Assembly (NCBI GenBank): GCA_022711765.1
Contig: JAKLEB010000001.1
Coordinates: 1,186 to 65,185, forward strand
Reading direction: 5' to 3'
Length of the DNA stretch: 64,000 nucleotides
DNA from: Candidatus Krumholzibacteriota bacterium
GTDB taxonomy: Bacteria; Krumholzibacteriota; Krumholzibacteriia; LZORAL124-64-63
This document shows, one piece after another, positions 17,332 to 56,515 of the stretch. The notes under the pieces were generated by a model. It was not told where the DNA came from, did no database searches, and worked only from the letters and a program-made list of their open reading frames with translations. The translations under genes were made by a program, and so were the position numbers. Positions within the stretch are counted from its first letter, which is position 1. The number at the start of each line of letters is the position of its first letter.

Positions 17332-18741
17332 ATGCCGTCCATGAGCCGACCGAAATCCATCGACCATACCCGCACCTACGCCGACGGCGTGATTGCCGCC
17401 GAGCCCGAGCGTCAGGCCCTGTTTCGCCGCATGGAGAACGATGGCGTCAAGTTCCTGCGGCTGATCTTCACGGACATCCTCGGCGCCAGCAAGAACGTGG
17501 AGGTGCCCGCCAGCCAGTTCGAGAAGGCCCTGCGCGGCGAGATCATGTTCGATGGATCGTCGATCGAGGGCTTCAGCCGCATCGAGGAATCCGACATGCT
17601 CCTGGTGCCGGACCTCGAGACCTACGCCGTGTTCCCGTTCCAGTATGATGGGGCCGTCCGCGTCGGCCGGATCATCTGCGATTGCTACACCGCCAGCCAC
17701 GAGCCGTTCGCCGGGTGCCCGCGGCTGGCGCTCAAGCGCACCCTGCGGGCGTACGACGCCCTGGGCCTGCAGCCGGTCTGCGGCCCCGAGCTCGAGTTCT
17801 TCCTGTTCCAGCTCCGCGAGAACGGCGATCCGAGCGTCGTGACCCACGACCGGGGCGGCTACTTCGACCTGGCGCCGGTCGATCGCGGTGAGGCGGCGCG
17901 CCGGCAGATGGTCCTGCACCTCGAGGGGATGGGATTCGAGATCGAGGCGGCTCACCACGAGGTCGCGCCGGGCCAGCACGAGATCGACTTCAAGTACGCC
18001 GAGGCGCTCGCGACCGCCGACCGGGTGATCACCTTCAAGCAGCTCGTCAAGAAGGTCGCGGTCGATCACGGGCTGCACGCGACCTTCATGCCGAAGCCGC
18101 TGGCCGGGGTCAACGGCTCGGGCATGCACGTGCACCAGTCGCTGTTTCGCCGGGACGGCGACCAGCTGGTCAACGTGTTCCACGATCCGAAGGCCGAGAA
18201 CGAGCTGAGCGACCTGATGCGCTGGTACATCGGCGGCATCCTCAAGCATGCCCCGGCGTTCGTGGCCATCACGAATCCGCTGGTCAACAGCTACAAGCGG
18301 CTCGTTCCGGGCTACGAGGCGCCCGTGAACATCGCCTGGTCGGACCACAACCGGTCTCCGCTGGTCCGCGTGCCGGCAAGACGCGGGTCCGGCACCCGCT
18401 GCGAGGTCCGCGTGCCCGATCCCAGCTGCAACCCGTATCTGGCGTTCCTGGTGATGCTGCAGTCGGGTCTCGACGGGATCCGCAACAAGCTCGATCCCGG
18501 ACCGGCCGTGAATCTGAACATCTTCCACCTGAACGAGCTCGAGAAGCAGGAGCGGGGCATCAAGCAGCTGCCCGGCGATCTGTGGGCTTCGCTGCAGGAG
18601 CTGCGCAGCGACGAGATCTTGCGGGAGGCCCTGGGCGAGCACATCTTCGACAACTACCTGCGGGCCAAGGAAACCACCTGGCGCGAGTACGCTGCGCAGG
18701 TCCACCCGTGGGAGTTGGAGCGTTACCTGGCGACGTACTAG
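17332..18741 (+). CDS. glnA: Glutamine synthetase type I
   Basis: 469 aa, with FLRLIFTDILGASKNVEVP, the GS signature region and the C-terminal ...ELEKQERGIKQLPGDLWASL. Confidence 0.9.
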   Translation: MPSMSRPKSIDHTRTYADGVIAAEPERQALFRRMENDGVKFLRLIFTDILGASKNVEVPASQFEKALRGEIMFDGSSIEGFSRIEESDMLLVPDLETYAVFPFQYDGAVRVGRIICDCYTASHEPFAGCPRLALKRTLRAYDALGLQPVCGPELEFFLFQLRENGDPSVVTHDRGGYFDLAPVDRGEAARRQMVLHLEGMGFEIEAAHHEVAPGQHEIDFKYAEALATADRVITFKQLVKKVAVDHGLHATFMPKPLAGVNGSGMHVHQSLFRRDGDQLVNVFHDPKAENELSDLMRWYIGGILKHAPAFVAITNPLVNSYKRLVPGYEAPVNIAWSDHNRSPLVRVPARRGSGTRCEVRVPDPSCNPYLAFLVMLQSGLDGIRNKLDPGPAVNLNIFHLNELEKQERGIKQLPGDLWASLQELRSDEILREALGEHIFDNYLRAKETTWREYAAQVHPWELERYLATY

Positions 18742-18773: not shown

Positions 18774-19193
18774 ATGTTGACCGCGGGCGTCCTGGCGATC
18801 CTCAGCGGGCTCACCGCGCAGGCGTTGAAGGTCCTGCTCGAGCTGCTCGTGCATCGGTCCTGGCAGCCCCGGCTGTTCGTGCGCAACGGGGGCATGCCGT
18901 CGTCGCATACCGCGTCGGTCGTGACGCTCGCCATCCTGGTCGGCCAGGAAGCGGGAGTGCGATCGCCGGTGTTCAGCCTCGTGGTGGTCTTCGGGCTCTA
19001 CGTGATCTTCGAGGCGACGGGGCTGCGGCAGGAGGTTGGCGAACAGGCTCGCCTCCTGAACGACCTCGTCGAGACCATGCGCCGGACCCATCACCTGGCT
19101 GCGCAGGACCTCCGGGAATTCGTGGGGCACACCTGGGCCGAGGTGGCGGTGGGCGCGGTCTGCGGGACCCTGTTCGCGGTGCCGTTCCTCTGA
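18774..19193 (+). CDS. DUF212 / divergent PAP2 (acid phosphatase/vanadium haloperoxidase-related) membrane protein
   Basis: 139 aa from the ATG at 18774, with GMPSSHTASVVTLAILVG and multiple transmembrane helices (YuiD-like). Confidence 0.7.
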   Translation: MLTAGVLAILSGLTAQALKVLLELLVHRSWQPRLFVRNGGMPSSHTASVVTLAILVGQEAGVRSPVFSLVVVFGLYVIFEATGLRQEVGEQARLLNDLVETMRRTHHLAAQDLREFVGHTWAEVAVGAVCGTLFAVPFL

Positions 19194-19379
19194 AATGTAC
19201 CGGATCGTAATACTCCAGTAAAGATCCCATTATCTCTTGACAGACCGTTCTTAATCCGTCGAATCTCGCCCCGATACGCGCGGGATCCTGTCCCCCGCAA
19301 GCCACGGACTGCCGGGATCCAGGGATGGACAAGGGCATCCGGGTCGACACCGCTGCCGGCTTCATGACGAAAGGATTTC

Positions 19380-20456
19380 GTGATGAGAGTCATCGCCCTG
19401 GTCAACCAGAAGGGCGGCTGCGGCAAAACCACCACCGCCGTCAACCTAGCGGCCGCGCTCACGAGGATCGGCCAACGAGTCCTGCTCGTCGACAACGATC
19501 CTCAAGGCCACGCCAGCCTCGCGCTCGGCCTCACCGAACGCGATTTCACCCTGTCGACCTTCGACCTCTACCTCACCACCGACATCCTCGTCGAAGACGC
19601 GCGCGTCGAGATCGGGCCCCGATTGCATCTGGTTCCCGCGGGCGTCGAGCTCACCGCGGTCGAGCCGAAGCTCGCGGGCGTCGACGGACACGAGAAGCGG
19701 TTGCGCGACAATTTCCTGCGATCCGAGCTGCCCTACGACGTCATCCTGATCGACTGCCCGCCCGCCGTCGGACTTCTGACCCTCAATGCGCTGCTCGCGA
19801 GCGGCGAAGCGCTGGTGCCGCTCGACGCGAGCGCCTTCAGCCGCCAGGCGGTCGCCAAGCTGTACGAGACCCTGGCCGTCGTCCGCGATCGGCGTGGCCA
19901 CGAGGTCGTGCCGCGCCTGCTCCTGGCCAATTACGACCTGCGGTCCCGGTTCGCCCGCGACCTGCGGCAGGAGCTGGGGGCGGCGTACGACGGGGCCTTG
20001 CTCGAGACGATCGTCCACCCGACCATCCGCCTGCGCGAGGCGGCGGCGGCCGGGCGATCGATCCTCGACCACGACCCGGGTTCGCGCGCGGCGAGAGATT
20101 ACCAGGACCTGGCCCGCGAGATCGCCGGGCAGGCGGTGGACCTGTCCGTGTCGGCCCTCGACCACTGGACGGCGCTGCTGCACGGGCCGGAGGCGACGCC
20201 CGAGGGCGTGCATTTCGTCGTCGATCTCCCGCGGGCCCGAGACGTGCGGCTCACCGGTTCCTTCTGCGGCTGGTCTCGCGAAGGGCTGCCGCTCAGGCGC
20301 CGCCAGGACGGGCGGTGGGAATGCGTGGTCGAGATCGGCCCGGGCGCGCACGAGTACCGCTACATCGTGGACGGGACCTGGTTGCCCGACCCGCACAACG
20401 CCAACAACGTGACCAACGAGTTCGGCGGCGCCAACAGTCTGGTCACGGTGGCCTGA
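19380..20456 (+). CDS. ParA/MinD-family ATPase fused to a C-terminal AMPK-beta glycogen-binding (CBM48) domain
   Basis: 358 aa. Deviant Walker A NQKGGCGKTTTAVNLAAAL; ParA fold to about residue 260. The C-terminal 80 aa (VRLTGSFCGWSREGLPLRR...GAHEYRYIVDGTWLPDPHNANNVTNEFGGANSLVTV) match the AMPK1_CBM / CBM48 pattern closely. An AAAGGA ribosome-binding site precedes the start. Confidence 0.8.
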   Translation: MMRVIALVNQKGGCGKTTTAVNLAAALTRIGQRVLLVDNDPQGHASLALGLTERDFTLSTFDLYLTTDILVEDARVEIGPRLHLVPAGVELTAVEPKLAGVDGHEKRLRDNFLRSELPYDVILIDCPPAVGLLTLNALLASGEALVPLDASAFSRQAVAKLYETLAVVRDRRGHEVVPRLLLANYDLRSRFARDLRQELGAAYDGALLETIVHPTIRLREAAAAGRSILDHDPGSRAARDYQDLAREIAGQAVDLSVSALDHWTALLHGPEATPEGVHFVVDLPRARDVRLTGSFCGWSREGLPLRRRQDGRWECVVEIGPGAHEYRYIVDGTWLPDPHNANNVTNEFGGANSLVTVA

Positions 20457-20457
20457 C

Positions 20458-21012
20458 GTGGTCCAGGCCGGCGACTCCGCGTCCAGGCATCGCTTCGACG
20501 CGGTGGCCGAGGCGTTCCTCCCCGCGGCGCGCACGGGTCACGAGCCAGCGCGCGATCGGGCCGGCTGCCTGTACGCCGCGGCTCCTGGCGCGGTGGATAC
20601 GGCCGCGATCCTGGCCAGCTTCGGATCCGCTGCCGGGACTGCTCCGCGCTTCGATCTGGGCGGTGAGGTCTGGACGCGGCTCGCCCGCTGGGAACGCACG
20701 GGCTGGCGGGCGCCGTTTCCGGCCGACCAGGCGATCCTGCTCTGGTGCCCCCGAGCCGCCGAGGGGACGTCGCTCACCGCGTCCATGGTCCTCGGACGGC
20801 TGGGGGCGTTGATTCGTCCCCGGCGGCTCACCATCCTCTGGCACTGGGGCGAGTCGCGCCCGCCCGGGCGATTGCCCGACGCGGTCCAGCGAGCTCGCGC
20901 CGAGTCGCTGGCCGGAGCTGCGGTCCCCGGGGCCGCCGTGACCCTGCATTGCGTCGGCTGGATCTCGACCGTCGCTTCCGATCTCGGCGACCTGGCGCAG
21001 CGGTACCGGTGA
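20458..21012 (+). CDS. Hypothetical protein immediately downstream of the ParA-CBM48 gene
   Basis: 184-aa GTG-start ORF beginning 2 nt after the parA-like stop. No recognisable domains. It could be a partner protein or a GC-bias ORF. Confidence 0.3.
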   Translation: MVQAGDSASRHRFDAVAEAFLPAARTGHEPARDRAGCLYAAAPGAVDTAAILASFGSAAGTAPRFDLGGEVWTRLARWERTGWRAPFPADQAILLWCPRAAEGTSLTASMVLGRLGALIRPRRLTILWHWGESRPPGRLPDAVQRARAESLAGAAVPGAAVTLHCVGWISTVASDLGDLAQRYR

Positions 21013-21081: not shown

Positions 21082-21603
21082 ATGAAGGCGCCCCGTCACG
21101 CTCGCCGAGTCGCGATCGGCGCCGGTCTCGCCGTCCTGCTGGGCGGCCTCCCGGCCGCGGGCGGACCGGTCCTGCTGGTCATCGAGGCCGCGCGGGACAC
21201 GACCGCCGGCTTCGTGGCGTTGCCGCTGCCGGAGCTGGGACGGCGCGCCCTGGCCTGGCCGGACGGGGTCGTCACGTTGCCGGACACGACGGAATGGCTG
21301 GAAGAAGGTCCGCGAGGACTCGCCTTCCGGCTCGAGTCGCCGTCGCTCGTGGGCGTGGCGGCCGGGGGGCGATTCGCCTGCGAGCCGGGGAGCTACCGGC
21401 TCGACGCGCCGCTCGTCCTCGCCGACGGGGCGGTCGTCGCCTGCCTCTCCGCGGGCAGCCTCGACGTCACGGGGGAGCGGATCACCTACCGGCAGCCGCC
21501 GGCGCGGCGCGACCAGCGGGGGAACTACCTGATCCTGGCCGGACTGCTGATCGCGACGGCGGTCATGCTGCGCGGCGTCCGGCGACGGCACAAGTCGGCA
21601 TGA
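21082..21603 (+). CDS. Hypothetical secreted/membrane-anchored protein
   Basis: 173 aa from the ATG at 21082. Signal peptide (AIGAGLAVLLGGLPAAG) and a C-terminal transmembrane helix (YLILAGLLIATAVML). Its stop overlaps the start of the next gene. Confidence 0.45.
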   Translation: MKAPRHARRVAIGAGLAVLLGGLPAAGGPVLLVIEAARDTTAGFVALPLPELGRRALAWPDGVVTLPDTTEWLEEGPRGLAFRLESPSLVGVAAGGRFACEPGSYRLDAPLVLADGAVVACLSAGSLDVTGERITYRQPPARRDQRGNYLILAGLLIATAVMLRGVRRRHKSA

Positions 21604-26150: not shown

Positions 26151-27478
26151 GGCGACTCGCCGTCACGGTCGCGATCGGGGGCGCCGCGCTCGTCGTCGCA
26201 GCGGGCGTGCTGTGGGGTCGCAGTCCGGCGGCAGTCGAGTGGCGCAGAGCCCGCACGATCTGCATCGAGAGCGACGACTGGGGCCTCTGCGGATTCCTGC
26301 CCGACACGTCCGCGCTCGCCGGGCTGGACCGCAAGGTCCTGGCTCCCGGCCAGTTCCCCGAGGTCTACTGGCACTCGACGCTCGAGGATAGCGCCATGGT
26401 CGCCGAGCTGGCGGCGGTCTTCGCCGCTCACCGCGGCCGCGACGGACTGCCGGCGGTGCTTCAGCCGAACTACATCCTCGCGTCGTTCTCGCTGGAGCCG
26501 GACCCGCTCGACTCGACGGATCGCTGGATCGTGCGGGACATGCCGGCGACTCCACCGGGGTACGACCGGCCAGGGCTGTGGCACGCGGTGCGCGACGCGC
26601 AACAGGCCGGCGTCTGGCACCCGGAGCTCCACGGGCGCTGGCATTACGATCCGGAACTCCGCCGGCGGCGCGCGAGCGAGGAGCCGGCGGTTCGCGCGGC
26701 AGCGGCCCTGCAGATCCTGCCGTTCCCCGAGAGCGAACGCGCCTGGGAGCTCGGTGCGTGGCGGGACCTCGCCGTGATCGCTGACGAGCTGGACCGCAAT
26801 CTCGTCGTGTTCCGGCAGCTCTTCGGCTACTCGCCGCGTTCGGTGATCGCGCCCGACTACGTCTGGAATGACCGGCACGAGCAGCTCTGGTGCGAGCGGG
26901 ATCTGCGCGTGATCCAGGGCCAGCGGCAGCAGAGGCAGAGTCGCTGGCGGGGCCTCTCGGGTCGCCTGCTCAAGGTCTGGCATCGCGCATGGACGCGGTG
27001 GTATCGGCAGGACCGGGTCTACCTCGACCGCAACTGCCTGTTCGAGCCGGTCCAGCAGCATGCGCCCAGGGCGATCACCGAGGCGGCTGTGCGGGATGTC
27101 GACGCCGCCTGGCGGCGGCGCGAAGCCGCGATAGTCGAAGCCCACCGGATCAATTTCGCCCACCTGGATCCCGCCGTGCACGAGCTGGGCCGTGCCGAGC
27201 TCGCCCACCTGCTCGGCGAGTTCGCGACCCGTGGGCCGCTCTTCGTGGTCGACAGTGAGCTGGCGGATCTGCAGCGGCGAGGCACGTCCTGGGTGGTCCG
27301 CGGCGACCGGATCGTGGTCCGGAACCTGACCCGCGCGCGCCGCCTGGTCGTCGTCCCGCCGGAGGCGGCGGCCGCCGGTCAAGAGCGCGAGCCGTCGGCC
27401 GGGGCCGAGCCTCTCGTCCTGGTTCTCGAACCTGGCGAGACCAGGACCTTGCCCGCCGATGGCTCGATGAGCAACTAA
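26144..27478 (+). CDS. Hypothetical exported protein in glycan cluster
   Basis: 444 aa from the ATG at 26144, which overlaps the upstream stop. N-terminal transmembrane/signal segment (LAVTVAIGGAALVVAAGVLWG). No confident family. Confidence 0.5.
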   Translation: MLRRLAVTVAIGGAALVVAAGVLWGRSPAAVEWRRARTICIESDDWGLCGFLPDTSALAGLDRKVLAPGQFPEVYWHSTLEDSAMVAELAAVFAAHRGRDGLPAVLQPNYILASFSLEPDPLDSTDRWIVRDMPATPPGYDRPGLWHAVRDAQQAGVWHPELHGRWHYDPELRRRRASEEPAVRAAAALQILPFPESERAWELGAWRDLAVIADELDRNLVVFRQLFGYSPRSVIAPDYVWNDRHEQLWCERDLRVIQGQRQQRQSRWRGLSGRLLKVWHRAWTRWYRQDRVYLDRNCLFEPVQQHAPRAITEAAVRDVDAAWRRREAAIVEAHRINFAHLDPAVHELGRAELAHLLGEFATRGPLFVVDSELADLQRRGTSWVVRGDRIVVRNLTRARRLVVVPPEAAAAGQEREPSAGAEPLVLVLEPGETRTLPADGSMSN

Positions 27479-27491
27479 AAAACTCCTCAAT

Positions 27492-27520
27492 TAGACTCAT
27501 TTCTTTATCTATGGTAAGAT
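27492..27520 (+). promoter_or_regulatory. AT-rich sigma70-like promoter TAGACT-N17-TAAGAT for giant gene copy 1
   Basis: AT-rich island (AAAAAACTCCTCAATTAGACTCATTTCTTTATCTATGGTAAGATCA) in otherwise 70% GC DNA. The -35 hexamer is at 27492-27497 and the -10 at 27515-27520, with a 17-nt spacer. Confidence 0.5.
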
Positions 27521-27609
27521 CATCTCCTTGGTTTGCCCAGGAACGGTCGTCACCGGGCGATCGCGTCTACGGCTCGATCCGCATGCACGCGCGACCCAGG
27601 AGGATAGGC

Positions 27610-30600
27610 ATGAGCCGCCGCATGGTCGTAACCCCGCTCATCGTCATCGCCGTCTCGCTCAGTTCCCTGGTCCTGGCCGCGCAGGGTCCTGTGCTCTACG
27701 AAGGAACGTTGGAACCGGATCAGTTCGCCTGGACCGAGCTGGCCGATGGGTCGTACCGGCTCGACCTCGGCGGTGGTCGCTCGCTCGGGGTCACGGACCT
27801 GGCGGACCTGCCGGCGATCGACCTCCTGTTGCTCGTGCCCGCCGACCTGGCGATCGCCGGCGTCGAGGTCGAACCGCTCGCGATCCGCTCGATCGTTGCG
27901 CCCGGCCGCCTGGCGCTGGCGGGCGCCCTGGCGTCGAGCGCCGGCGACCTCCTGCCGCAGCGTGACCTGGAGCCGGCCGGTGGCATGTTCCCGCCGAGCT
28001 GGGGCGCCTTCGGCGGCGTTCACAGCTGGCGGGGCTACCGGTTGCTCGCCGTGACCGTGCACCCGGCGCGCCTGCGCGACGGCGATCCCGGGTCGCCCGC
28101 GCGCCTGGACGTGCTGGAGCGGTTCGCGATCCGCGCGGTCTCGACCGGCGCGCCCGCCGCGAGCCCGCCCCTCGCTCGCGAGCGTCTCGTCGCCGGGGAG
28201 CGCAGCCGCCTGGAACGGCTGTTGCGCCCGCTCGTGGCGAATCCGGAGGCGGTGACGAGCTATCAGCGCGAGGACGGGGCTGCGCTCGACAAGTCGGGCG
28301 CTCCCTTCCTGCCCACGCCCAACCCCAGCCTCGAAGGAAGCGGGATCCGGTACCTGATCGTGACGTCGGCGGCGCTGGCGCCCGAGTTCCAGCGCCTGGC
28401 GGACCACCGCACGCGCCAGGGATTGCCGGCGCTCGTGGTGACGCGCGAGTGGATCTCCGCGAATTTCCGTCGCGGCGTCGATTTCCAGGAGACCCTGAGG
28501 ATGTTCCTGCAGGACGCGTACGCCAAGTGGGGCGTGGAGTACCTGCTGCTCGGCGGGGACACGGAGATCGTGCCGACCCGCACGATCCGGAGCAACTTCT
28601 ATCCGTACGGCGGGCACACGGACATCCCGACCGACACGTACTACGCCGCGCTCGATGGGAACTGGGGCGCCGACGGCGACGGCTGGCTCGGCGAGCCGTA
28701 CGTCACGGAGGGCAACCCCGGCGACAACGCCGATCTCGCGCCGGAACTCGCCGTGGCGCGGGCGCCGGTGCGCAGCCTCCTCGGCGCCCAGCAGTTCGTG
28801 GACAAGGTGCTGGGCTACGAGGCGACGCCGGCCGGCGCGCTCTGGGCGAACCGGATCCTCTTCGCCGCGGAGGTGCTCTTCCCGTCGCCCTGGCATCCGG
28901 GCGAACCCATCACGCTCGATGGCGCCCAGTACGCGCAGACCTTGATCGACACCATCATCGAGTCGTGCTCGACCATGTCCTATGTGCGCATGTACGAGAC
29001 CGCGCAGCTCTATCCGCGCGACGCTCCGCTGACCCGCGCGGCCCTGATCGACTCGCTCAACACCGGCCACTACGGCCACGTGGACCAGTTCGGCCACGGG
29101 CACTACTTCAACATGTCGGTCGGCGACGCGAACTTCACGGTGTCCGACGCGGACGCTCTCCACAATCCGCATCACTTCCTGCTCTTCGCCGTGAACTGCG
29201 CGTCGGGCGCGTTCGATTTCTCGTGCTTGATGGAGCGGTTCGTCGAGAATCCCGACGGCGGCGCGATCGTCTCGGTCAGCGCCGCGCGTGAAGCATTCCC
29301 CTCCAATTCCTTCGGCTACCAGTCGACGTTCTACGGCGCCATGGTCTGCGACGGCGTGCTCCGCGTCCCCGACGCGTTCAACGTGGCGCGCCTGCAGTTC
29401 ATCGGCAACACGTCGCGCAACACGGTCGACCGCTGGACGCAGCTCAATGCGGCGATCATCGGCGATCCCGCGACCGGCATCTGGTGCGGTCCGCCGCTGG
29501 CGCCCTCGATCACGGCGCCCGCCAATCTCGCCGTTGGCGAGCAGACGGTGCAGGTCCAGGTCGTGGCGGGCGGTCGGCCGGCGGTCGGCGCCGACGTCTG
29601 TCTGGTCAAGGACGGCGAGACGTACGCGTGGGCCGTCACCGATCCGGCGGGTCAGGCGTCGCTGACGATCGTCCCGCAGACGGCGGGCACGGTCACCTTG
29701 ACGGTTTCGGGCGCCAACCTCGTGCGGACGACCCGCACGATCCCGGTCGCCGGCAGCGCGACGTACGTGGCCATGACCGGATTCGGGATCGGCGACCAGT
29801 CGCCCAACGGCAACGGCAACGGCGTCGCCGAGGCCGGCGAGACGATTTCGCTGGCGCTGCAGTTGCAGGATCTCGGCGGCGGCGGCGCGACCGGGCTGAA
29901 TGTCACGTTGACCAGCGACGATCCGCAGCTCGTGGTGCTCGACGGCACGGCGAGCGCGGGCAACATCGCGCCGGGCGGATCGACCACCAACCTGGACCCG
30001 CTCGTGGTCAAGCCGCAGACCATCATGCGTGACGGTTTGCGCATCGCGATGCGGATCGTCGTGACGGCGAACGGCGGCGGCAGCTGGGTCAGCAACGGCC
30101 TGCTCGAGGTGCGGGTGCCCGAGCCGGAGGTCGCGCGCCTCGTCGTCGACGACTCCGTCTACGGCGACGGCGACGGCGTGGCGGAGAGCAACGAACGCCT
30201 GGTCCTGCGTCCGTACGTGAAGAACTACGGCAGCGGACGACTCGACCAGCTCGTCGCGCAGGTGACGAACGCGGCGGCGGGGGTCACGGTGCACAGCGCC
30301 TTCGCGTTCTACGCCAACGTCGACCTGCTGGAGGAGGAGACCTACCAGTCGGGCGAGCTCTCGGTGACCCTGGCCAACATCGGGCAGCTCCAGCCGTGCC
30401 GCGTCGATTTCCAGGACAACTACGGGCGCACCTTCACCCAGCCGCTCGAATTCAACGAGCCGGCGGCTCCCGGCCTGCCGGCCGCCGACGCGACGATCGC
30501 GTCGGACGCGATCGCGCTGCGCTGGGACCCGGTCGGCGGGGCGGCGACCCTGGGCTACCACGTCTATCGCGCGGCGGCCGAGGCGGGGCCGTTCAGCCGG

Positions 30601-32406
30601 GCCAACCCCGACCTGCTGCAGGGGATCGCGTACTTCGAGGACCGCGGACTCATGCAGCTGACGCCGTACTGGTACAAGGTCACCGCCGTGGACACGTTCC
30701 TGCAGGAGAGCGATTTCTCGCCGGTCGTGACCCAGGGGACCATGCCGCCCGAGCTCACCAATTTCCCGCTGGAGTTCCAGTTGCAGACGAGCGGCCACAT
30801 CGCCGTGGGGGACATCGACGGGGACGGGCGGTTGGAGATCGTCCTCGCGTCGGACGAGGTCTACGCGTGGAACGAGGACGGCAGCGAGCTCGTCGACGGG
30901 GACAACGACGCCCAGACCACCGGTCCTTTGACGGGAGTCGACGGTCAGTTCGAGCCGTCCGGCGTGGTCCTGGCGGACCTCGACGGTGAGCCGGGGCTGG
31001 AGATCATCGCGAGCGAGCGCCTGAACGCGCGCCAGATCCACGTCTTCAGGGCGGACGGCAGCGAGCTTCCGGGCTGGCCGCGGACCATGCAGAACTCCTG
31101 GAACTGGGCGACGCCGGCGGTCGGCGACGTCGACGGCGACGGCGACAACGAGGTCGTGGTCAACGATACGGCCGGGCGCACGTTCGTCTGGCACCATACC
31201 GGAGTCGAGCTGCGCGACGGGGACAGCAACCCCGCCACCAACGGCGTGTTCGTCGATCGCGACGAGAGCTGGGGCTACTCGTCGCCCGCGCTCTTCGACC
31301 TGGACGGGGACGGCGCCTGCGAGATCATCTTCGGCACGCGCTACTTCACGCCGGGCAACGCGCTGCTCGCGTATCGTTACAACGGCAGTCAGGCGCAGAA
31401 CTTCCCGTTCACGACGGGCAGCGCGCAGATCATCTGCGCGCCGGCGATCGCCGATCTCGATCGGGACGGCGACAAGGAGATCGTCTTCTTCACGACCGCT
31501 CACTACCTCTACGCGATCCACCACAACGCGGCGGCGTACCCGGGCTTCCCGGTCTTCTTCAACACGAACTGGGACGACTCTCCGGGCCCCAGCCCGGCGG
31601 TCGGCAATTTCGACGGCGACAACGACCTGGAGATCCTCTGGCCGGTCAACGGCGGTTCGTTCCGCCTGGACCTGATCGCGGTCGACACGGGCCGCTTCGA
31701 CGGCACGACCGGCGACATCATGGCGGGCTGGCCGGTGCAGCTGCCGGCGAACTCGGAGGGCAGTCCGGTCGTGGGCGACATCAACGGCGACGGCCTCTCG
31801 GATGTCGTGCAGCCCGTCGGCAGCGACGAGACCGAAACGCCGGACCTCATCTTCGCCGTCGACCACGCGGGAGAGGGGATCCCGGGCTTCCCGATCCGGC
31901 TCGACGGGATCCCGCGCTCGACGCCGGTGATCTGCGACCTGGATCTCGACGGCGACGTGGAGGTCGTGTACGGGTCGTGGGACCGGTTGCTCCACGCCTG
32001 GGACCTGCCGGCGCCCTTCGACGCCGCGAACGTGCCGTGGCCGACCTTCCACGGCAATCCGCAGCGGACCGGCGTCGCCGTGCAGGTGAGCATCACCGGC
32101 GTCGACGATCCGGTGGTGCCGAGCATCTTCACCGTCATGCCGCCGCACCCCAATCCGTTCAATCCGGTCACCACTCTGCGCCTCTACGTGGCGCCGGGAC
32201 CGGACCGCCGGCTCGACGTGGCGGTGTACGACCTGCGGGGCCGCCGGATCCGGCAGCTGCACGCGGGCGACGCCGCGGCGGGGTGGCACGACCTGACCTG
32301 GGACGGGCGCGACGACACGGGTCGCGGCCAGGCCAGCGGCGTGTACTTCGTCCGCGCGCAGCAGGCGGCAGAGTCGCGGACCTTCAAGCTGACGCTCGTG
32401 AAATAG
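27610..32406 (+). CDS. Giant secreted protein, copy 1: gingipain-like C25 cysteine peptidase + CARDB/Ig-like + FN3 + 7x FG-GAP beta-propeller + T9SS C-terminal sorting domain
   Basis: 1598 aa from the ATG at 27610, after an AGGAGG ribosome-binding site. Signal peptide MSRRMVVTPLIVIAVSLSSLVLAAQG. The C25-like catalytic region shows His (QFGHGHYFNMSVGD) and Cys (LLFAVNCASGAFD) in a gingipain-like arrangement. NGNGNGVAEAGETISL CARDB-like repeats are present. An FN3 domain is present (LRWDPVGG...YHVYRAA...YWYKVTAVD). There are seven FG-GAP-type calcium-binding repeats (GDIDGDGRLEIV, GDVDGDGDNEVVV, FDLDGDGACEIIFG, ADLDRDGDKEIVF, GNFDGDNDLEILW, GDINGDGLSDVV, CDLDLDGDVEVVYG). The C-terminus (PNPFNPVTTLRLYV...VAVYDLRGRRIRQL...WDGRDDTGRGQASGVYFVRAQ...RTFKLTLVK) matches the T9SS type-A sorting domain. 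Confidence 0.8.
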   Translation: MSRRMVVTPLIVIAVSLSSLVLAAQGPVLYEGTLEPDQFAWTELADGSYRLDLGGGRSLGVTDLADLPAIDLLLLVPADLAIAGVEVEPLAIRSIVAPGRLALAGALASSAGDLLPQRDLEPAGGMFPPSWGAFGGVHSWRGYRLLAVTVHPARLRDGDPGSPARLDVLERFAIRAVSTGAPAASPPLARERLVAGERSRLERLLRPLVANPEAVTSYQREDGAALDKSGAPFLPTPNPSLEGSGIRYLIVTSAALAPEFQRLADHRTRQGLPALVVTREWISANFRRGVDFQETLRMFLQDAYAKWGVEYLLLGGDTEIVPTRTIRSNFYPYGGHTDIPTDTYYAALDGNWGADGDGWLGEPYVTEGNPGDNADLAPELAVARAPVRSLLGAQQFVDKVLGYEATPAGALWANRILFAAEVLFPSPWHPGEPITLDGAQYAQTLIDTIIESCSTMSYVRMYETAQLYPRDAPLTRAALIDSLNTGHYGHVDQFGHGHYFNMSVGDANFTVSDADALHNPHHFLLFAVNCASGAFDFSCLMERFVENPDGGAIVSVSAAREAFPSNSFGYQSTFYGAMVCDGVLRVPDAFNVARLQFIGNTSRNTVDRWTQLNAAIIGDPATGIWCGPPLAPSITAPANLAVGEQTVQVQVVAGGRPAVGADVCLVKDGETYAWAVTDPAGQASLTIVPQTAGTVTLTVSGANLVRTTRTIPVAGSATYVAMTGFGIGDQSPNGNGNGVAEAGETISLALQLQDLGGGGATGLNVTLTSDDPQLVVLDGTASAGNIAPGGSTTNLDPLVVKPQTIMRDGLRIAMRIVVTANGGGSWVSNGLLEVRVPEPEVARLVVDDSVYGDGDGVAESNERLVLRPYVKNYGSGRLDQLVAQVTNAAAGVTVHSAFAFYANVDLLEEETYQSGELSVTLANIGQLQPCRVDFQDNYGRTFTQPLEFNEPAAPGLPAADATIASDAIALRWDPVGGAATLGYHVYRAAAEAGPFSRANPDLLQGIAYFEDRGLMQLTPYWYKVTAVDTFLQESDFSPVVTQGTMPPELTNFPLEFQLQTSGHIAVGDIDGDGRLEIVLASDEVYAWNEDGSELVDGDNDAQTTGPLTGVDGQFEPSGVVLADLDGEPGLEIIASERLNARQIHVFRADGSELPGWPRTMQNSWNWATPAVGDVDGDGDNEVVVNDTAGRTFVWHHTGVELRDGDSNPATNGVFVDRDESWGYSSPALFDLDGDGACEIIFGTRYFTPGNALLAYRYNGSQAQNFPFTTGSAQIICAPAIADLDRDGDKEIVFFTTAHYLYAIHHNAAAYPGFPVFFNTNWDDSPGPSPAVGNFDGDNDLEILWPVNGGSFRLDLIAVDTGRFDGTTGDIMAGWPVQLPANSEGSPVVGDINGDGLSDVVQPVGSDETETPDLIFAVDHAGEGIPGFPIRLDGIPRSTPVICDLDLDGDVEVVYGSWDRLLHAWDLPAPFDAANVPWPTFHGNPQRTGVAVQVSITGVDDPVVPSIFTVMPPHPNPFNPVTTLRLYVAPGPDRRLDVAVYDLRGRRIRQLHAGDAAAGWHDLTWDGRDDTGRGQASGVYFVRAQQAAESRTFKLTLVK

Positions 32407-32666: not shown

Positions 32667-32695
32667 TTGACTCGTTTCTTTATTTGTGGTAAGAT
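32667..32695 (+). promoter_or_regulatory. AT-rich sigma70-like promoter TTGACT-N17-TAAGAT for giant gene copy 2
   Basis: -35 TTGACT at 32667-32672, 17-nt spacer, -10 TAAGAT at 32690-32695. It is homologous to the copy-1 promoter but with a better -35 hexamer. Confidence 0.5.
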
Positions 32696-32784
32696 CATCT
32701 CCTTGGTTTGCCCAGGAACGGTCGTCACCGGGCGATCGCGTCTACGGCTCGATCCGCATGCACGCGCGACCCAGGAGGATAGGC

Positions 32785-35700
32785 ATGAGCCGCCGCATGG
32801 TCGTAACCCCGCTCATCGTCATCGCCGTCTCGCTCAGTTCCCTGGTCCTGGCCGCGCAGGGTCCTGTGCTCTACGAAGGAACGTTGGAACCGGATCAGTT
32901 CGCCTGGACCGAGCTGGCCGATGGGTCGTACCGGCTCGACCTCGGCGGTGGTCGCTCGCTCGGGGTCACGGACCTGGCGGACCTGCCGGCGATCGACCTC
33001 CTGTTGCTCGTGCCCGCCGACCTGGCGATCGCCGGCGTCGAGGTCGAACCGCTCGCGATCCGCTCGATCGTTGCGCCCGGCCGCCTGGCGCTGGCGGGCG
33101 CCCTGGCGTCGAGCGCCGGCGACCTCCTGCCGCAGCGTGACCTGGAGCCGGCCGGTGGCATGTTCCCGCCGAGCTGGGGCGCCTTCGGCGGCGTTCACAG
33201 CTGGCGGGGCTACCGGTTGCTCGCCGTGACCGTGCACCCGGCGCGCCTGCGCGACGGCGATCCCGGGTCGCCCGCGCGCCTGGACGTGCTGGAGCGGTTC
33301 GCGATCCGCGCGGTCTCGACCGGCGCGCCCGCCGCGAGCCCGCCCCTCGCTCGCGAGCGTCTCGTCGCCGGGGAGCGCAGCCGCCTGGAACGGCTGTTGC
33401 GCCCGCTCGTGGCGAATCCGGAGGCGGTGACGAGCTATCAGCGCGAGGACGGGGCTGCGCTCGACAAGTCGGGCGCTCCCTTCCTGCCCACGCCCAACCC
33501 CAGCCTCGAAGGAAGCGGGATCCGGTACCTGATCGTGACGTCGGCGGCGCTGGCGCCCGAGTTCCAGCGCCTGGCGGACCACCGCACGCGCCAGGGATTG
33601 CCGGCGCTCGTGGTGACGCGCGAGTGGATCTCCGCGAATTTCCGTCGCGGCGTCGATTTCCAGGAGACCCTGAGGATGTTCCTGCAGGACGCGTACGCCA
33701 AGTGGGGCGTGGAGTACCTGCTGCTCGGCGGGGACACGGAGATCGTGCCGACCCGCACGATCCGGAGCAACTTCTATCCGTACGGCGGGCACACGGACAT
33801 CCCGACCGACACGTACTACGCCGCGCTCGATGGGAACTGGGGCGCCGACGGCGACGGCTGGCTCGGCGAGCCGTACGTCACGGAGGGCAACCCCGGCGAC
33901 AACGCCGATCTCGCGCCGGAACTCGCCGTGGCGCGGGCGCCGGTGCGCAGCCTCCTCGGCGCCCAGCAGTTCGTGGACAAGGTGCTGGGCTACGAGGCGA
34001 CGCCGGCCGGCGCGCTCTGGGCGAACCGGATCCTCTTCGCCGCGGAGGTGCTCTTCCCGTCGCCCTGGCATCCGGGCGAACCCATCACGCTCGATGGCGC
34101 CCAGTACGCGCAGACCTTGATCGACACCATCATCGAGTCGTGCTCGACCATGTCCTATGTGCGCATGTACGAGACCGCGCAGCTCTATCCGCGCGACGCT
34201 CCGCTGACCCGCGCGGCCCTGATCGACTCGCTCAACACCGGCCACTACGGCCACGTGGACCAGTTCGGCCACGGGCACTACTTCAACATGTCGGTCGGCG
34301 ACGCGAACTTCACGGTGTCCGACGCGGACGCTCTCCACAATCCGCATCACTTCCTGCTCTTCGCCGTGAACTGCGCGTCGGGCGCGTTCGATTTCTCGTG
34401 CTTGATGGAGCGGTTCGTCGAGAATCCCGACGGCGGCGCGATCGTCTCGGTCAGCGCCGCGCGTGAAGCATTCCCCTCCAATTCCTTCGGCTACCAGTCG
34501 ACGTTCTACGGCGCCATGGTCTGCGACGGCGTGCTCCGCGTCCCCGACGCGTTCAACGTGGCGCGCCTGCAGTTCATCGGCAACACGTCGCGCAACACGG
34601 TCGACCGCTGGACGCAGCTCAATGCGGCGATCATCGGCGATCCCGCGACCGGCATCTGGTGCGGTCCGCCGCTGGCGCCCTCGATCACGGCGCCCGCCAA
34701 TCTCGCCGTTGGCGAGCAGACGGTGCAGGTCCAGGTCGTGGCGGGCGGTCGGCCGGCGGTCGGCGCCGACGTCTGTCTGGTCAAGGACGGCGAGACGTAC
34801 GCGTGGGCCGTCACCGATCCGGCGGGTCAGGCGTCGCTGACGATCGTCCCGCAGACGGCGGGCACGGTCACCTTGACGGTTTCGGGCGCCAACCTCGTGC
34901 GGACGACCCGCACGATCCCGGTCGCCGGCAGCGCGACGTACGTGGCCATGACCGGATTCGGGATCGGCGACCAGTCGCCCAACGGCAACGGCAACGGCGT
35001 CGCCGAGGCCGGCGAGACGATTTCGCTGGCGCTGCAGTTGCAGGATCTCGGCGGCGGCGGCGCGACCGGGCTGAATGTCACGTTGACCAGCGACGATCCG
35101 CAGCTCGTGGTGCTCGACGGCACGGCGAGCGCGGGCAACATCGCGCCGGGCGGATCGACCACCAACCTGGACCCGCTCGTGGTCAAGCCGCAGACCATCA
35201 TGCGTGACGGTTTGCGCATCGCGATGCGGATCGTCGTGACGGCGAACGGCGGCGGCAGCTGGGTCAGCAACGGCCTGCTCGAGGTGCGGGTGCCCGAGCC
35301 GGAGGTCGCGCGCCTCGTCGTCGACGACTCCGTCTACGGCGACGGCGACGGCGTGGCGGAGAGCAACGAACGCCTGGTCCTGCGTCCGTACGTGAAGAAC
35401 TACGGCAGCGGACGACTCGACCAGCTCGTCGCGCAGGTGACGAACGCGGCGGCGGGGGTCACGGTGCACAGCGCCTTCGCGTTCTACGCCAACGTCGACC
35501 TGCTGGAGGAGGAGACCTACCAGTCGGGCGAGCTCTCGGTGACCCTGGCCAACATCGGGCAGCTCCAGCCGTGCCGCGTCGATTTCCAGGACAACTACGG
35601 GCGCACCTTCACCCAGCCGCTCGAATTCAACGAGCCGGCGGCTCCCGGCCTGCCGGCCGCCGACGCGACGATCGCGTCGGACGCGATCGCGCTGCGCTGG

Positions 35701-37581
35701 GACCCGGTCGGCGGGGCGGCGACCCTGGGCTACCACGTCTATCGCGCGGCGGCCGAGGCGGGGCCGTTCAGCCGGGCCAACCCCGACCTGCTGCAGGGGA
35801 TCGCGTACTTCGAGGACCGCGGACTCATGCAGCTGACGCCGTACTGGTACAAGGTCACCGCCGTGGACACGTTCCTGCAGGAGAGCGATTTCTCGCCGGT
35901 CGTGACCCAGGGGACCATGCCGCCCGAGCTCACCAATTTCCCGCTGGAGTTCCAGTTGCAGACGAGCGGCCACATCGCCGTGGGGGACATCGACGGGGAC
36001 GGGCGGTTGGAGATCGTCCTCGCGTCGGACGAGGTCTACGCGTGGAACGAGGACGGCAGCGAGCTCGTCGACGGGGACAACGACGCCCAGACCACCGGTC
36101 CTTTGACGGGAGTCGACGGTCAGTTCGAGCCGTCCGGCGTGGTCCTGGCGGACCTCGACGGTGAGCCGGGGCTGGAGATCATCGCGAGCGAGCGCCTGAA
36201 CGCGCGCCAGATCCACGTCTTCAGGGCGGACGGCAGCGAGCTTCCGGGCTGGCCGCGGACCATGCAGAACTCCTGGAACTGGGCGACGCCGGCGGTCGGC
36301 GACGTCGACGGCGACGGCGACAACGAGGTCGTGGTCAACGATACGGCCGGGCGCACGTTCGTCTGGCACCATACCGGAGTCGAGCTGCGCGACGGGGACA
36401 GCAACCCCGCCACCAACGGCGTGTTCGTCGATCGCGACGAGAGCTGGGGCTACTCGTCGCCCGCGCTCTTCGACCTGGACGGGGACGGCGCCTGCGAGAT
36501 CATCTTCGGCACGCGCTACTTCACGCCGGGCAACGCGCTGCTCGCGTATCGTTACAACGGCAGTCAGGCGCAGAACTTCCCGTTCACGACGGGCAGCGCG
36601 CAGATCATCTGCGCGCCGGCGATCGCCGATCTCGATCGGGACGGCGACAAGGAGATCGTCTTCTTCACGACCGCTCACTACCTCTACGCGATCCACCACA
36701 ACGCGGCGGCGTACCCGGGCTTCCCGGTCTTCTTCAACACGAACTGGGACGACTCTCCGGGCCCCAGCCCGGCGGTCGGCAATTTCGACGGCGACAACGA
36801 CCTGGAGATCCTCTGGCCGGTCAACGGCGGTTCGTTCCGCCTGGACCTGATCGCGGTCGACACGGGCCGCTTCGACGGCACGACCGGCGACATCATGGCG
36901 GGCTGGCCGGTGCAGCTGCCGGCGAACTCGGAGGGCAGTCCGGTCGTGGGCGACATCAACGGCGACGGCCTCTCGGATGTCGTGCAGCCCGTCGGCAGCG
37001 ACGAGACCGAAACGCCGGACCTCATCTTCGCCGTCGACCACGCGGGAGAGGGGATCCCGGGCTTCCCGATCCGGCTCGACGGGATCCCGCGCTCGACGCC
37101 GGTGATCTGCGACCTGGATCTCGACGGCGACGTGGAGGTCGTGTACGGGTCGTGGGACCGGTTGCTCCACGCCTGGGACCTGCCGGCGCCCTTCGACGCC
37201 GCGAACGTGCCGTGGCCGACCTTCCACGGCAATCCGCAGCGGACCGGCGTCGCCGTGCAGGTGAGCATCACCGGCGTCGACGATCCGGTGGTGCCGAGCA
37301 TCTTCACCGTCATGCCGCCGCACCCCAATCCGTTCAATCCGGTCACCACTCTGCGCCTCTACGTGGCGCCGGGACCGGACCGCCGGCTCGACGTGGCGGT
37401 GTACGACCTGCGGGGCCGCCGGATCCGGCAGCTGCACGCGGGCGACGCCGCGGCGGGGTGGCACGACCTGACCTGGGACGGGCGCGACGACACGGGTCGC
37501 GGCCAGGCCAGCGGCGTGTACTTCGTCCGTGCGCAGCAGGCGGCAGAGTCGCGGACGTTCAAGCTGACGCTCGTGAAATAG
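32785..37581 (+). CDS. Giant secreted protein, copy 2 (identical protein): C25 peptidase + CARDB + FN3 + FG-GAP propeller + T9SS CTD
   Basis: 1598 aa. The protein is identical to copy 1. At the DNA level there are only two synonymous differences near the 3' end (CGC to CGT, ACC to ACG). Confidence 0.8.
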   Translation: MSRRMVVTPLIVIAVSLSSLVLAAQGPVLYEGTLEPDQFAWTELADGSYRLDLGGGRSLGVTDLADLPAIDLLLLVPADLAIAGVEVEPLAIRSIVAPGRLALAGALASSAGDLLPQRDLEPAGGMFPPSWGAFGGVHSWRGYRLLAVTVHPARLRDGDPGSPARLDVLERFAIRAVSTGAPAASPPLARERLVAGERSRLERLLRPLVANPEAVTSYQREDGAALDKSGAPFLPTPNPSLEGSGIRYLIVTSAALAPEFQRLADHRTRQGLPALVVTREWISANFRRGVDFQETLRMFLQDAYAKWGVEYLLLGGDTEIVPTRTIRSNFYPYGGHTDIPTDTYYAALDGNWGADGDGWLGEPYVTEGNPGDNADLAPELAVARAPVRSLLGAQQFVDKVLGYEATPAGALWANRILFAAEVLFPSPWHPGEPITLDGAQYAQTLIDTIIESCSTMSYVRMYETAQLYPRDAPLTRAALIDSLNTGHYGHVDQFGHGHYFNMSVGDANFTVSDADALHNPHHFLLFAVNCASGAFDFSCLMERFVENPDGGAIVSVSAAREAFPSNSFGYQSTFYGAMVCDGVLRVPDAFNVARLQFIGNTSRNTVDRWTQLNAAIIGDPATGIWCGPPLAPSITAPANLAVGEQTVQVQVVAGGRPAVGADVCLVKDGETYAWAVTDPAGQASLTIVPQTAGTVTLTVSGANLVRTTRTIPVAGSATYVAMTGFGIGDQSPNGNGNGVAEAGETISLALQLQDLGGGGATGLNVTLTSDDPQLVVLDGTASAGNIAPGGSTTNLDPLVVKPQTIMRDGLRIAMRIVVTANGGGSWVSNGLLEVRVPEPEVARLVVDDSVYGDGDGVAESNERLVLRPYVKNYGSGRLDQLVAQVTNAAAGVTVHSAFAFYANVDLLEEETYQSGELSVTLANIGQLQPCRVDFQDNYGRTFTQPLEFNEPAAPGLPAADATIASDAIALRWDPVGGAATLGYHVYRAAAEAGPFSRANPDLLQGIAYFEDRGLMQLTPYWYKVTAVDTFLQESDFSPVVTQGTMPPELTNFPLEFQLQTSGHIAVGDIDGDGRLEIVLASDEVYAWNEDGSELVDGDNDAQTTGPLTGVDGQFEPSGVVLADLDGEPGLEIIASERLNARQIHVFRADGSELPGWPRTMQNSWNWATPAVGDVDGDGDNEVVVNDTAGRTFVWHHTGVELRDGDSNPATNGVFVDRDESWGYSSPALFDLDGDGACEIIFGTRYFTPGNALLAYRYNGSQAQNFPFTTGSAQIICAPAIADLDRDGDKEIVFFTTAHYLYAIHHNAAAYPGFPVFFNTNWDDSPGPSPAVGNFDGDNDLEILWPVNGGSFRLDLIAVDTGRFDGTTGDIMAGWPVQLPANSEGSPVVGDINGDGLSDVVQPVGSDETETPDLIFAVDHAGEGIPGFPIRLDGIPRSTPVICDLDLDGDVEVVYGSWDRLLHAWDLPAPFDAANVPWPTFHGNPQRTGVAVQVSITGVDDPVVPSIFTVMPPHPNPFNPVTTLRLYVAPGPDRRLDVAVYDLRGRRIRQLHAGDAAAGWHDLTWDGRDDTGRGQASGVYFVRAQQAAESRTFKLTLVK

Positions 37582-54752: not shown

Positions 54753-54814
54753 GACTTGGTGGCCCCTGAGACTTGGCGGCCGCCGAGACGTGGCGGCCCC
54801 TGAGACCTGGCGAC
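54747..54814. repeat. Imperfect 17-bp tandem repeat x4 (consensus CCCTGAGACTTGGCGGC)
   Basis: The four units are CCCTGAGACTTGGTGGC, CCCTGAGACTTGGCGGC, CGCCGAGACGTGGCGGC and CCCTGAGACCTGGCGAC. The array begins inside the PhzF stop codon and ends 43 nt before the acyl-CoA dehydrogenase ATG. Confidence 0.8.
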
Positions 54815-54857
54815 CGGCGGCGGCGGTTTCGCCGCGGCGACGACACGGAGGATCCCC

Positions 54858-56513: not shown

Positions 56514-56515
56514 CC

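Follow-up and report, generated by a model that had tools for sequence, protein, structure and literature searches.

A ParA-type ATPase fused to a glycogen-binding-type module across bacterial phyla, and a candidate system for tethering glycogen

What would a ParA-type positioning ATPase do with a carbohydrate-binding module at its own C terminus? Bacteria use ATPases of the ParA/MinD family as their general positioning motors, and to our knowledge the spatial organisation of bacterial glycogen and its sharing between daughter cells are essentially unstudied. The question is raised by a locus in a 64,000-nucleotide stretch of a Candidatus Krumholzibacteriota genome (the window), where one gene encodes a 357-residue protein that joins a Soj-like ParA ATPase to a carbohydrate-binding module (CBM) of family CBM48, of the type carried by the beta subunit of the kinase AMPK. 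An earlier note on the window had read this ParA-CBM48 protein as a ParA directed at glycogen granules. We find the fusion to be real and widespread, to be encoded in many loci directly upstream of a partner with a ParB-like N-terminal peptide, and to recur beside genes of glycogen metabolism. Altogether, this supports the earlier interpretation, under which the protein would bind glycogen and govern its position.

An ATPase and a carbohydrate-binding module on one polypeptide

The 357-residue product is identical to database entry P0001, from Candidatus Krumholzibacteria metagenome-assembled genomes (MAGs). The two domains that the earlier note had placed on the same polypeptide were both recovered above Pfam gathering cut-offs: AAA_31 scored 143 bits over residues 2-171 and CbiA 57 bits, with MipZ also matched, and AMPK1_CBM (PF16561) scored 46.1 bits over residues 286-357 (cut-off 26.8), above CBM_48 (PF02922) at 34.0 bits (cut-off 22.4). 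Searched against sequences of the PDB, the N-terminal 250 residues matched Myxococcus xanthus ParA (MxParA; 8RAY, 147 bits) and Thermus thermophilus Soj (130 bits). The C-terminal 90 residues alone matched the AMPK beta-1 CBM (phmmer, E = 7e-10; rat 1z0m, 4yef) and the AMPK beta-2 CBM, with weaker matches to GlgB, pullulanase and SEX4/LSF1. An AlphaFold2 (AF2) model built on a 23-sequence family alignment (predicted local distance difference test, pLDDT, 86.3; predicted template modelling score, pTM, 0.83) consists of a ParA fold, a loose linker and an all-beta C-terminal domain. The pLDDT is mostly above 85 in the ATPase domain, below 50 at linker residues 255-266 and about 87-91 in the C-terminal strands (residues 270-356). 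Foldseek matches of the whole model, which are dominated by the ATPase domain, include Soj/ParA structures (9a6n, 8ray, 2bek) at E values of 1e-22 to 1e-18 and target-normalised TM scores of 0.88-0.93; McdA structures are among the distant matches (18-19% identity), and BcsQ structures are also found. The observation of a ParA-type ATPase fused to a glycogen-binding-type module is thereby confirmed.

The same architecture was found far outside the window. In a first homolog search, the 120 clusters listed at 58% identity or more were nearly all 356-367 residues long (a few reached 406) and had the same domain content. We scanned GTDB, at one genome per species, for the peptides NQKGGCGK and D[NS]DPQGHA; at least 599 stretches matched, 586 were confirmed by tblastn and 80 loci were retained. 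All 80 are full length: the match starts at query residue 1, extends to residue 341 or further (in most to 356-357), and the C-terminal module is encoded in each. Their labels place them in Krumholzibacteriota, Omnitrophota, Planctomycetota (several orders), Myxococcota, Desulfobacterota/Thermodesulfobacteriota and Acidobacteriota, with further labels of Gemmatimonadales, Nitrospirae, Eisenbacteria, Margulisiibacteriota and others, and the G+C content of the fusion-bearing loci lies between 31 and 73%. We also made a profile search of 1.84 billion cluster representatives at 50% identity, and among the best 150 matches analysed, 133 consist of a ParA domain and a single CBM. The taxonomic survey proposed in the earlier note thus places the fusion system in at least ten bacterial phyla. 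These 80 loci and 133 representatives rule out a recent, lineage-specific fusion, and the fusion lies far beyond chance because both domains and their order are kept across phyla.

The sampled entries are all metagenomic, including members of the 10 representative clusters that were checked, and carry generic names. Fusion proteins appear publicly as "AAA family ATPase", "ParA family protein" or "chromosome partitioning protein"; the first and last of these annotations are probably misleading. Two loci labelled Fibrobacteraceae (L013) and Gemmatimonadales (L014) encode a Krumholzibacteria-type protein (61-62% identity) together with a Krumholzibacteria-type partner tag, and therefore the taxonomic labels of these two bins are probably wrong.

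We examined residue conservation in an alignment of 81 family members that spans about ten phyla. The deviant Walker A motif KGGCGKTT, which the earlier note had picked out, is present with its signature Lys, and K10 and K15 are invariant, as are D37 and D39, the latter aligning to the catalytic D60 of MxParA in 8RAY; the invariance of Walker A and of this DxD motif is partly an ascertainment effect of the two scan peptides, which leaves the other positions unaffected. The Walker B residue D124, within ILIDCPP, is invariant as well. A hydrophobic pocket in the loop after Walker B (V129, L131 and L134) corresponds to L150, L152 and L155 of MxParA and is hydrophobic in at least 80 of the 81 members. 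R216 aligns to MxParA R238 (8RAY), the counterpart of which in Bacillus subtilis Soj we take to be R189, and is Lys or Arg in 75 of the 81. In M. xanthus ParA, R238E abolishes binding to nonspecific DNA, and L150, L152 and L155 contact the ParB peptide (PMC12462528). By its signature Lys, catalytic Asp, Walker B Asp and fold, the sequence is that of a ParA/MinD superfamily member. The Walker A Cys, which stands where ParA proteins usually have Val, is a family signature (KGGCGKT in 122 of the 133 fusion representatives) and is possibly redox-related or merely phylogenetic.

In the NCBIfam scan, the named ParA, MinD, BcsQ and RepA equivalogs were matched below threshold only. MinD was rejected (TIGR01968, 42.8 bits against a cut-off of 212.9; the protein is without a membrane-targeting helix, its C terminus being the CBM48), and so were BcsQ (TIGR03371, 95.2 against 157.85; no bcs genes near the window gene), a BY-kinase or Wzc-like ATPase (eps_fam, 33 against 108) and McdA of an McdAB pair (no carboxysome cbb or ccm genes in the window; the downstream partner, described below, is not McdB-like). 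The same holds for membership of a chromosomal ParABS system, for which the DNA-binding Arg is present, the ParA_partition equivalog (NF041546) reached 118.5 bits against a cut-off of 180, and a parB is missing beside the gene.

In favour of an ordinary chromosomal Soj with an accessory domain, served by a ParB encoded elsewhere, the closest sequences and structures of the ATPase domain are chromosomal ParA/Soj proteins, and the domain keeps both the DNA-binding Arg and the ParB-peptide pocket. We regard this reading as very improbable. parA and parB are normally adjacent, and the earlier note's remark that no parB lies beside the gene extends to the family's loci, with no ParB-box motif in the window or within 10 kb of the ATPase gene in 85 of them (1.23 Mb of flanks). 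The window is also free of a second ParA Walker A, of origin markers and of a skew inversion, and the ParA_partition score stays under its cut-off. Moreover, the KGGCGKT proteins form a distinct clade across phyla that generally have canonical ParABS, Myxococcota among them. M. xanthus provides the example in that phylum (PMC12462528).

The C-terminal module retains the sugar-contact residues of its AMPK relatives. In a HMMER alignment to rat 1Z0M (residues 68-163), W100, K126, W133, L146 and N150 of AMPK beta-1 correspond to W297, R326, W333, F347 and N351. The earlier note had singled out the sugar-binding Trp and Lys residues for a check: W297 and W333 are invariant in all 81 members and the Lys position is Arg or Lys in 77, with F347 being Phe or Tyr in 64 and N351 Asn or Asp in 81. 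L146 and N150 of AMPK beta-1 have a role in carbohydrate contact. Mutation of W100 or K126 in AMPK beta-1 abolishes glycogen binding, and mutation of W133 reduces it (PMC6274970). In profile and contact residues alike, the C-terminal domain thus belongs with AMPK-beta/CBM48 and would be expected to bind glycogen. A homolog search with the C-terminal 107 residues alone returned only four fragments. Five very large proteins without an ATPase domain among the profile-search matches, P0133 (1,812 residues), P0148, P0203, P0221 and P0240, carry 6-18 tandem CBMs closely related to the ParA-fused module.

The linker between the two domains measures 8-366 residues (median 52) in the 133 fusion representatives and varies in sequence among phyla. 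The window's clade has an invariant linker motif, LDHWxALLHGP (residues 259-269, positions 20157-20189), which is absent as a conserved motif in other phyla and could be a clade-specific interaction site. The alignment indicates that purifying selection acts jointly on the ATP-hydrolysis, DNA-binding and sugar-binding residues, with the tether free to vary.

These features also bear on a second reading, in which the protein is a glycogen-sensing regulator: the CBM48 would report the glycogen state and thereby alter ParA dimerisation, DNA binding or ATP turnover, and the output would lie in another process, for instance in cell division, in how the nucleoid is organised or in what the variable partner body contacts. 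The module is of the AMPK-beta type, with PF16561 scoring above PF02922, and there is a precedent in AMPK itself, where glycogen binding inhibits the kinase (PMC2642990, PMC6274970). The low-pLDDT linker motif of the window's clade could be a regulatory contact. A linker so variable in length and sequence is easier to reconcile with a passive tether than with an allosteric connection, however, and we consider a regulator of this kind unlikely while granting it a real share of the probability. Sensing and tethering are not mutually exclusive.

The downstream partner and its N-terminal peptide

We further investigated the genes next to the ATPase gene by clustering the open reading frames (ORFs) within 7 kb of it in the 85 loci and iterating a hidden Markov model (HMM). 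Members of the resulting partner family were found in 37 loci from many phyla, each encoded just downstream of the ATPase gene and in the same orientation (E values of 1e-14 to 1e-70). Profile-profile comparison identifies the family as a further paralog with the ParA/MinD fold (hhalign 98.2%, E = 4e-14, 220 columns), with a P-loop that is degenerate in most members and in some a classical GxxxxGK[ST] without the signature Lys; Pfam gave only sub-threshold CbiA/ParA matches. The most conserved region of the partner is an N-terminal peptide with consensus LGRGLEDVSHLFLS, or K-x-LGRGLED[IV]SHLFLS, of which KLGRGLSDVSHIFLS, GRGLEDVSHLFLS and RGISSIAHHFLS are examples. In 46 of the 85 loci, a tag of the form [KR]-x-LGRGLxx[IV]SHLFLS is found 20-400 nucleotides past the end of the ATPase gene, against 10 of 2,973 background ORFs (0.3%).

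The spacing of the tag, L-x-R-x-L-x-x-[LIV], is that of the ParA-binding motif of M. xanthus ParB (L11, R13, L15, L18 and I19; PMC12462528). A partner with a short, positively charged N-terminal peptide that interacts with the ATPase, usually encoded next to it, is a general principle of ParA/MinD systems (PMC10241942, PMC12462528). With respect to the chromosomal Soj reading, the resemblance to the ParB motif makes cross-talk with a genuine ParB conceivable; against that reading, the family has a conserved, tag-bearing partner of its own directly downstream.

The tag is also found on other proteins. In 19 Omnitrophota-type loci, MDKKDIYEHLAKIYLDASSKKKK precedes a transmembrane segment, in the same hydrophobic register, in a single-pass membrane protein whose gene stands just before that of the ATPase. 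Elsewhere, the tag IERFSHLFLS stands on an AAA_22 ATPase (L040, 5536-6459), and RRLAKVSHLFLS and RGLESVCHFFLS stand on a protein with HTH_17 and RodZ_C domains (L066, 1614-2966) and on a short HTH_17 protein (L057, 11077-11520). With the same tag on unrelated bodies, it therefore behaves as a portable module. The mixture of bodies (ParA-like, AAA_22, HTH with RodZ_C, membrane protein) also speaks for the sensing regulator, as it suggests outputs other than glycogen.

In the window, the partner gene X starts 1 nucleotide past the ParA-CBM48 stop codon and is therefore probably translationally coupled to it. The earlier note had left two possibilities for this 184-residue ORF, an McdB-like adaptor or a spurious frame. 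The latter is ruled out by its public annotation (P0125) and by seven homologs at 41-56% identity, and an adaptor role fits its ParB-like N-terminal peptide; the likeness to McdB did not hold up, as X has no sequence similarity to it. X evolves much faster than the ATPase: one 29-kb contig encodes an ATPase at 84% identity but an X at only 56%. The tag has diverged in the window's clade, being RHRFDAVAEAFLP in the window and RRHHLAAVADAFLS, RRSHHIDEVAHHFLS and HHIANIAHHFLS in relatives. The RHRFDAVAEAFLP peptide is a putative ParA-activating motif, and X itself, by sequence, appears to be a short, fast-evolving and distant member of the tag-bearing partner family.

A proposed glycogen-tethering cycle

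We next consider what the fusion acts on. GH57 is, besides the partner, the most frequent neighbour family across distant loci (15 of 296 neighbour proteins). An alpha-glucan enzyme is encoded within 7 kb in 24 of the 80 loci, which correspond to 6 of 24 sequence clusters (at least 50% identity); by our own rough estimate, which was not computed, 1-2% of random 14-kb windows would contain an alpha-glucan gene. GH57 stands immediately upstream of the ATPase in 17 Omnitrophota-type loci. In other loci the neighbours are a GH57 branching enzyme (BE_C) with a stand-alone 101-residue CBM48 (L043, 6340-6642, minus strand), another stand-alone CBM48 (L057, 8264-8548, plus strand), GlgB (L066) and GH13 amylases with AMPK1_CBM (L025, L028 and L030). 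The stand-alone CBMs of L043 and L057 (95-101 residues) match the HMM of the family's own CBM at E values of about 1e-29. The fusion is repeatedly and independently associated with enzymes of glycogen metabolism. A Krumholzibacteriota MAG has been reported to be rich in starch and glycogen glycoside hydrolases (PMC10936416).

On this basis we propose that the two proteins form a ParA-type system for cytoplasmic alpha-glucan (glycogen) particles, in which the ATPase itself does the cargo binding; we give equal weight to the truth and the falsity of this reading. ATP-bound Soj-like dimers would sit on the nucleoid through the conserved basic residue. Each subunit would bind glycogen with its AMPK-beta-type CBM48 on a flexible tether of 8-366 residues, so that a dimer with two CBMs could link glycogen particles to the nucleoid. 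The N-terminal peptide of the downstream partner would mimic the ParA-binding motif of chromosomal ParB and dock in the hydrophobic pocket beside Walker B, which would trigger ATP hydrolysis and release of the ATPase. In repeated rounds of binding and release, glycogen would become tethered to the chromosome and be distributed, and both daughter cells would inherit it. The system thus probably tethers or distributes glycogen. With its cargo module carried by the ATPase and with interchangeable partner bodies, this design reverses the arrangement of ParABS and McdAB.

Several points weigh against this proposal. It draws on sequence, predicted structure and gene neighbourhood, from which we infer its functional steps, namely glycogen binding, DNA binding, activation of the ATPase by the tag and the cellular outcome. 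The invariance of two ATPase motifs is in part ascertained, as noted above. Where an ATPase binds its cargo directly, the usual diffusion ratchet, with the activator on the cargo, does not follow automatically, and the protein may only tether. The window's own X is very diverged: by BLASTP it has no significant similarity to its positional counterpart in L004 (E = 1.1), members of its clade score only 0.003-0.2 against the partner-family HMM, with 55 columns aligned by hhalign, and its fold match is generic (a short alpha/beta domain). In the window's clade no alpha-glucan genes lie within 10 kb, and across the family 18 of the 24 sequence clusters have no glucan neighbour. Finally, the gene there stands at the head of a tight run of X, Y, Wzy_C, GT4, a WecA-like glycosyltransferase and a methyltransferase, which suggests co-transcription with envelope-polysaccharide genes.

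This last point leads to a third reading, a BcsQ-like organiser of polysaccharide synthesis or export, in which the ATPase would localise or regulate a glycan of the envelope or an alpha-glucan that is exported, and the CBM48 would keep the nascent chain, or a glucan primer, on the cytoplasmic side of the membrane. Besides the Wzy_C, GT4 and WecA-like glycosyltransferase genes of the window's clade, the Omnitrophota-type loci join an Alginate_exp-type outer-membrane porin, GH57 and the tagged single-pass membrane protein, and the Pfam CBP_BcsQ threshold is passed at 51 bits, in line with the BcsQ structures among the fold matches. Any ParA matches the Pfam BcsQ model, though, and the NCBIfam BcsQ equivalog stays far below its cut-off (95 against 158 bits). 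The Wzy cluster is kept neither within the phylum, where a second Krumholzibacteriota clade has an M10/fn3 protein instead, nor in other phyla. The ATPase keeps the Arg or Lys for binding nonspecific DNA and, because its C terminus is a CBM, has no membrane-targeting helix; the recurrent neighbours (GlgB, GH57 branching enzyme, amylase) belong to intracellular glycogen metabolism. We hold this reading to be quite unlikely. As for the glycogen-sensing regulator, it agrees with the lack of glucan genes near most loci, and it has against it the lack of any second cargo or process encoded consistently near the gene.

The proposed glycogen-tethering system can be set beside known ones. Chromosomal ParABS (M. 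xanthus ParA, 8RAY; T. thermophilus Soj, 1WCV/2BEK) offers the closest ATPase, with a TM score of about 0.9 and the same signature Lys, catalytic Asp, DNA-binding Arg and peptide pocket, and its partner has an N-terminal peptide of the LGRGL type with the spacing of ParB L11, R13, L15 and L18. The fusion differs from ParABS in lacking a ParB/Srx CTPase partner, parS and a neighbouring parB; the body of its partner has a degenerate ParA fold or some unrelated domain, and the ATPase carries the extra CBM48. McdAB and the orphan ParA/MinD systems (PomXYZ, ParC/ParP, PpfA/TlpT) likewise pair an ATPase with a fast-evolving partner that has a short N-terminal peptide, and share a presumed nucleoid matrix and a cargo in the cytoplasm that is not DNA. 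In those systems the partner binds the cargo, a protein assembly, whereas here the cargo module is on the ATPase, the partner body varies and the cargo is presumably a polysaccharide.

The outcome proposed here, a storage granule tethered to the nucleoid, is found with PhaM and PhaF, passive DNA- and granule-binding proteins that attach polyhydroxybutyrate granules to the nucleoid, so that the granules are partitioned with the chromosome. These operate without a ParA-type ATPase, an activating partner or a carbohydrate-binding module. The CBM of AMPK/SNF1 beta (PF16561) is the best Pfam and PDB match of the C-terminal domain, with conserved contact residues, but sits on a kinase scaffold rather than on a bacterial P-loop positioning ATPase. 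In plant PTST1 (Protein Targeting to Starch) and in yeast Atg45, a glycogen autophagy receptor, a CBM48 recruits a non-enzymatic effector to storage glucan (PMC6322578, PMC11145338); both systems are eukaryotic, with coiled-coil or Atg-interaction effectors, and are not known to involve an ATPase cycle. By analogy, the fusion would work most like the orphan ParA cargo systems, and its cargo recognition resembles that of PTST1 and Atg45.

To the earlier note's author, a glycogen-acting ParA seemed undescribed, and our search agrees: for this function or for a ParA-CBM48 architecture it found no description in the literature covered, with most subscription-journal papers outside the search. A 2023 study of multi-cargo ParA/MinD systems (PMC10241942) and a 2024 review of the ParA/MinD family make no mention of glycogen or storage granules. 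The earlier note had counted PHB granules among the cargoes of ParA-like ATPases; the 2024 review names no granules. What appears new, as judged from sequence, is the presumed class of cargo, the fusion of a cargo domain to the motor and a pseudo-ParA partner with a ParB-like tag. With somewhat less than even confidence, we suggest that the fusion represents an ancient and widespread inverted branch of ParA/MinD, in which the motor carries the CBM48 and a portable LGRGL...SHLFLS tag on interchangeable bodies sets the site of hydrolysis, and that bacteria would here have the first machinery dedicated to placing or passing on a polysaccharide storage granule. Such an architecture challenges the standard rule by which the ATPase binds the matrix and the partner binds the cargo. 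If true, a conserved glycogen-binding ATPase would open the organisation of glycogen to tests that need a single pair of small proteins and a simple readout in vitro, and a compact "luggage tag" peptide with a glucan-binding motor may interest designers of minimal positioning systems.

Features of the window and its surroundings

The features discussed above are collected in Table 1. A longer frame (19380-20456, plus strand) opens with a GTG at 19380, one codon before the ATG at 19383; with AAGGA at 19371-19375, 7 nucleotides before that ATG, translation of ParA-CBM48 likely starts at the ATG rather than at the GTG. Contigs of 2.06-2.16 Mb carry the gene about 20 kb from their end. The G+C content of the window is about 70%, and promoter and terminator scans around the gene, in this 70% G+C region, gave nothing usable. 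No glg genes are present in the 64-kb window.

Table 1. Coordinates of the ParA-CBM48 gene, its parts and the adjacent genes in the window
Feature	Position	Strand	Evidence or remark
ParA-CBM48 coding sequence, 357 aa (amino acids) + stop	19383..20456	+	ORF found; GC3 (G+C at third codon positions) 0.90; exact match to P0001
Soj-like ParA/MinD ATPase domain, aa 1-250	19383..20132	+	AAA_31, Foldseek, AF2
Deviant Walker A KGGCGKTT, aa 10-17, family-typical Cys	19410..19433	+	Motif scan
Interdomain linker, aa 251-269	20133..20189	+	Contains clade-specific LDHWxALLHGP
AMPK-beta-type CBM48, aa 270-357	20190..20453	+	AMPK1_CBM, CBM_48, AMPK beta-1 structures
Partner gene X, 184 aa, GTG start	20458..21012	+	Public record P0125; homologs
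X N-terminal peptide, aa 10-22, RHRFDAVAEAFLP, putative ParA-activating motif	20485..20523	+	Clade variant of LGRGLxx[IV]SHLFLS tag
DUF212 (divergent PAP2), immediately upstream	18774..19193	+	PF02681, 127.6 bits
Gene Y, 173 aa, predicted membrane-anchored, hydrophobic N- and C-terminal segments	21082..21603	+	Called in L001-L003

The gene order in the window's clade is a PpiD-like gene (minus strand), in some members GlnA, then DUF212, ParA-CBM48, X, Y, Wzy_C, GT4, a WecA-like glycosyltransferase, a methyltransferase, a hypothetical gene and giant C25 peptidases, with the genes from X to GT4 tightly packed. DUF212 lies upstream in 21 loci, including those of the second Krumholzibacteriota clade (about 41% identity), where the order is SBP_bac_5, DUF212, ParA-CBM48, X and then the M10/fn3 protein; this synteny is limited to Krumholzibacteriota. 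Gene Y is homologous to 12088-12654 of L006, has no Pfam match, is conserved only in the window's clade, overlaps the Wzy_C start with its stop codon and is at most a possible member of the system.

The Omnitrophota-type loci (L035, L041, L047, L048, L051, L059 and others) have an order of their own: the Alginate_exp-type porin, GH57, the tagged single-pass membrane protein, ParA-CBM48, a 134-residue protein and DUF134. The 134-residue protein, with a Lys-rich tail and a barrel like domain 2 of EF-Tu, could be a second partner or a DNA-binding factor (an example locus is L059, 6358-12394).

A glutamine synthetase gene (17341-18741, plus strand) stands between the PpiD-like gene and DUF212 in L001, L007 and L008 and is not at that position in L004 or L006, which points to a local insertion or deletion in an otherwise fixed synteny. 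Further downstream, two giant tandem proteins of 1,715 and 1,636 residues are encoded at 27259-32406 and 32671-37581 (plus strand), the second with Peptidase_C25, FG-GAP repeats and a C-terminal FlgD_ig domain; their homologs occupy the same position, downstream of the Wzy and glycosyltransferase cluster, in other Krumholzibacteria loci. An acyl-CoA dehydrogenase gene (54804-56513) is overlapped at its end by the gene for a PF13941 'MutL' protein (56492-58645, plus strand, 353 bits), which we take to be of the glutamate-mutase-associated type rather than the MutL of mismatch repair.

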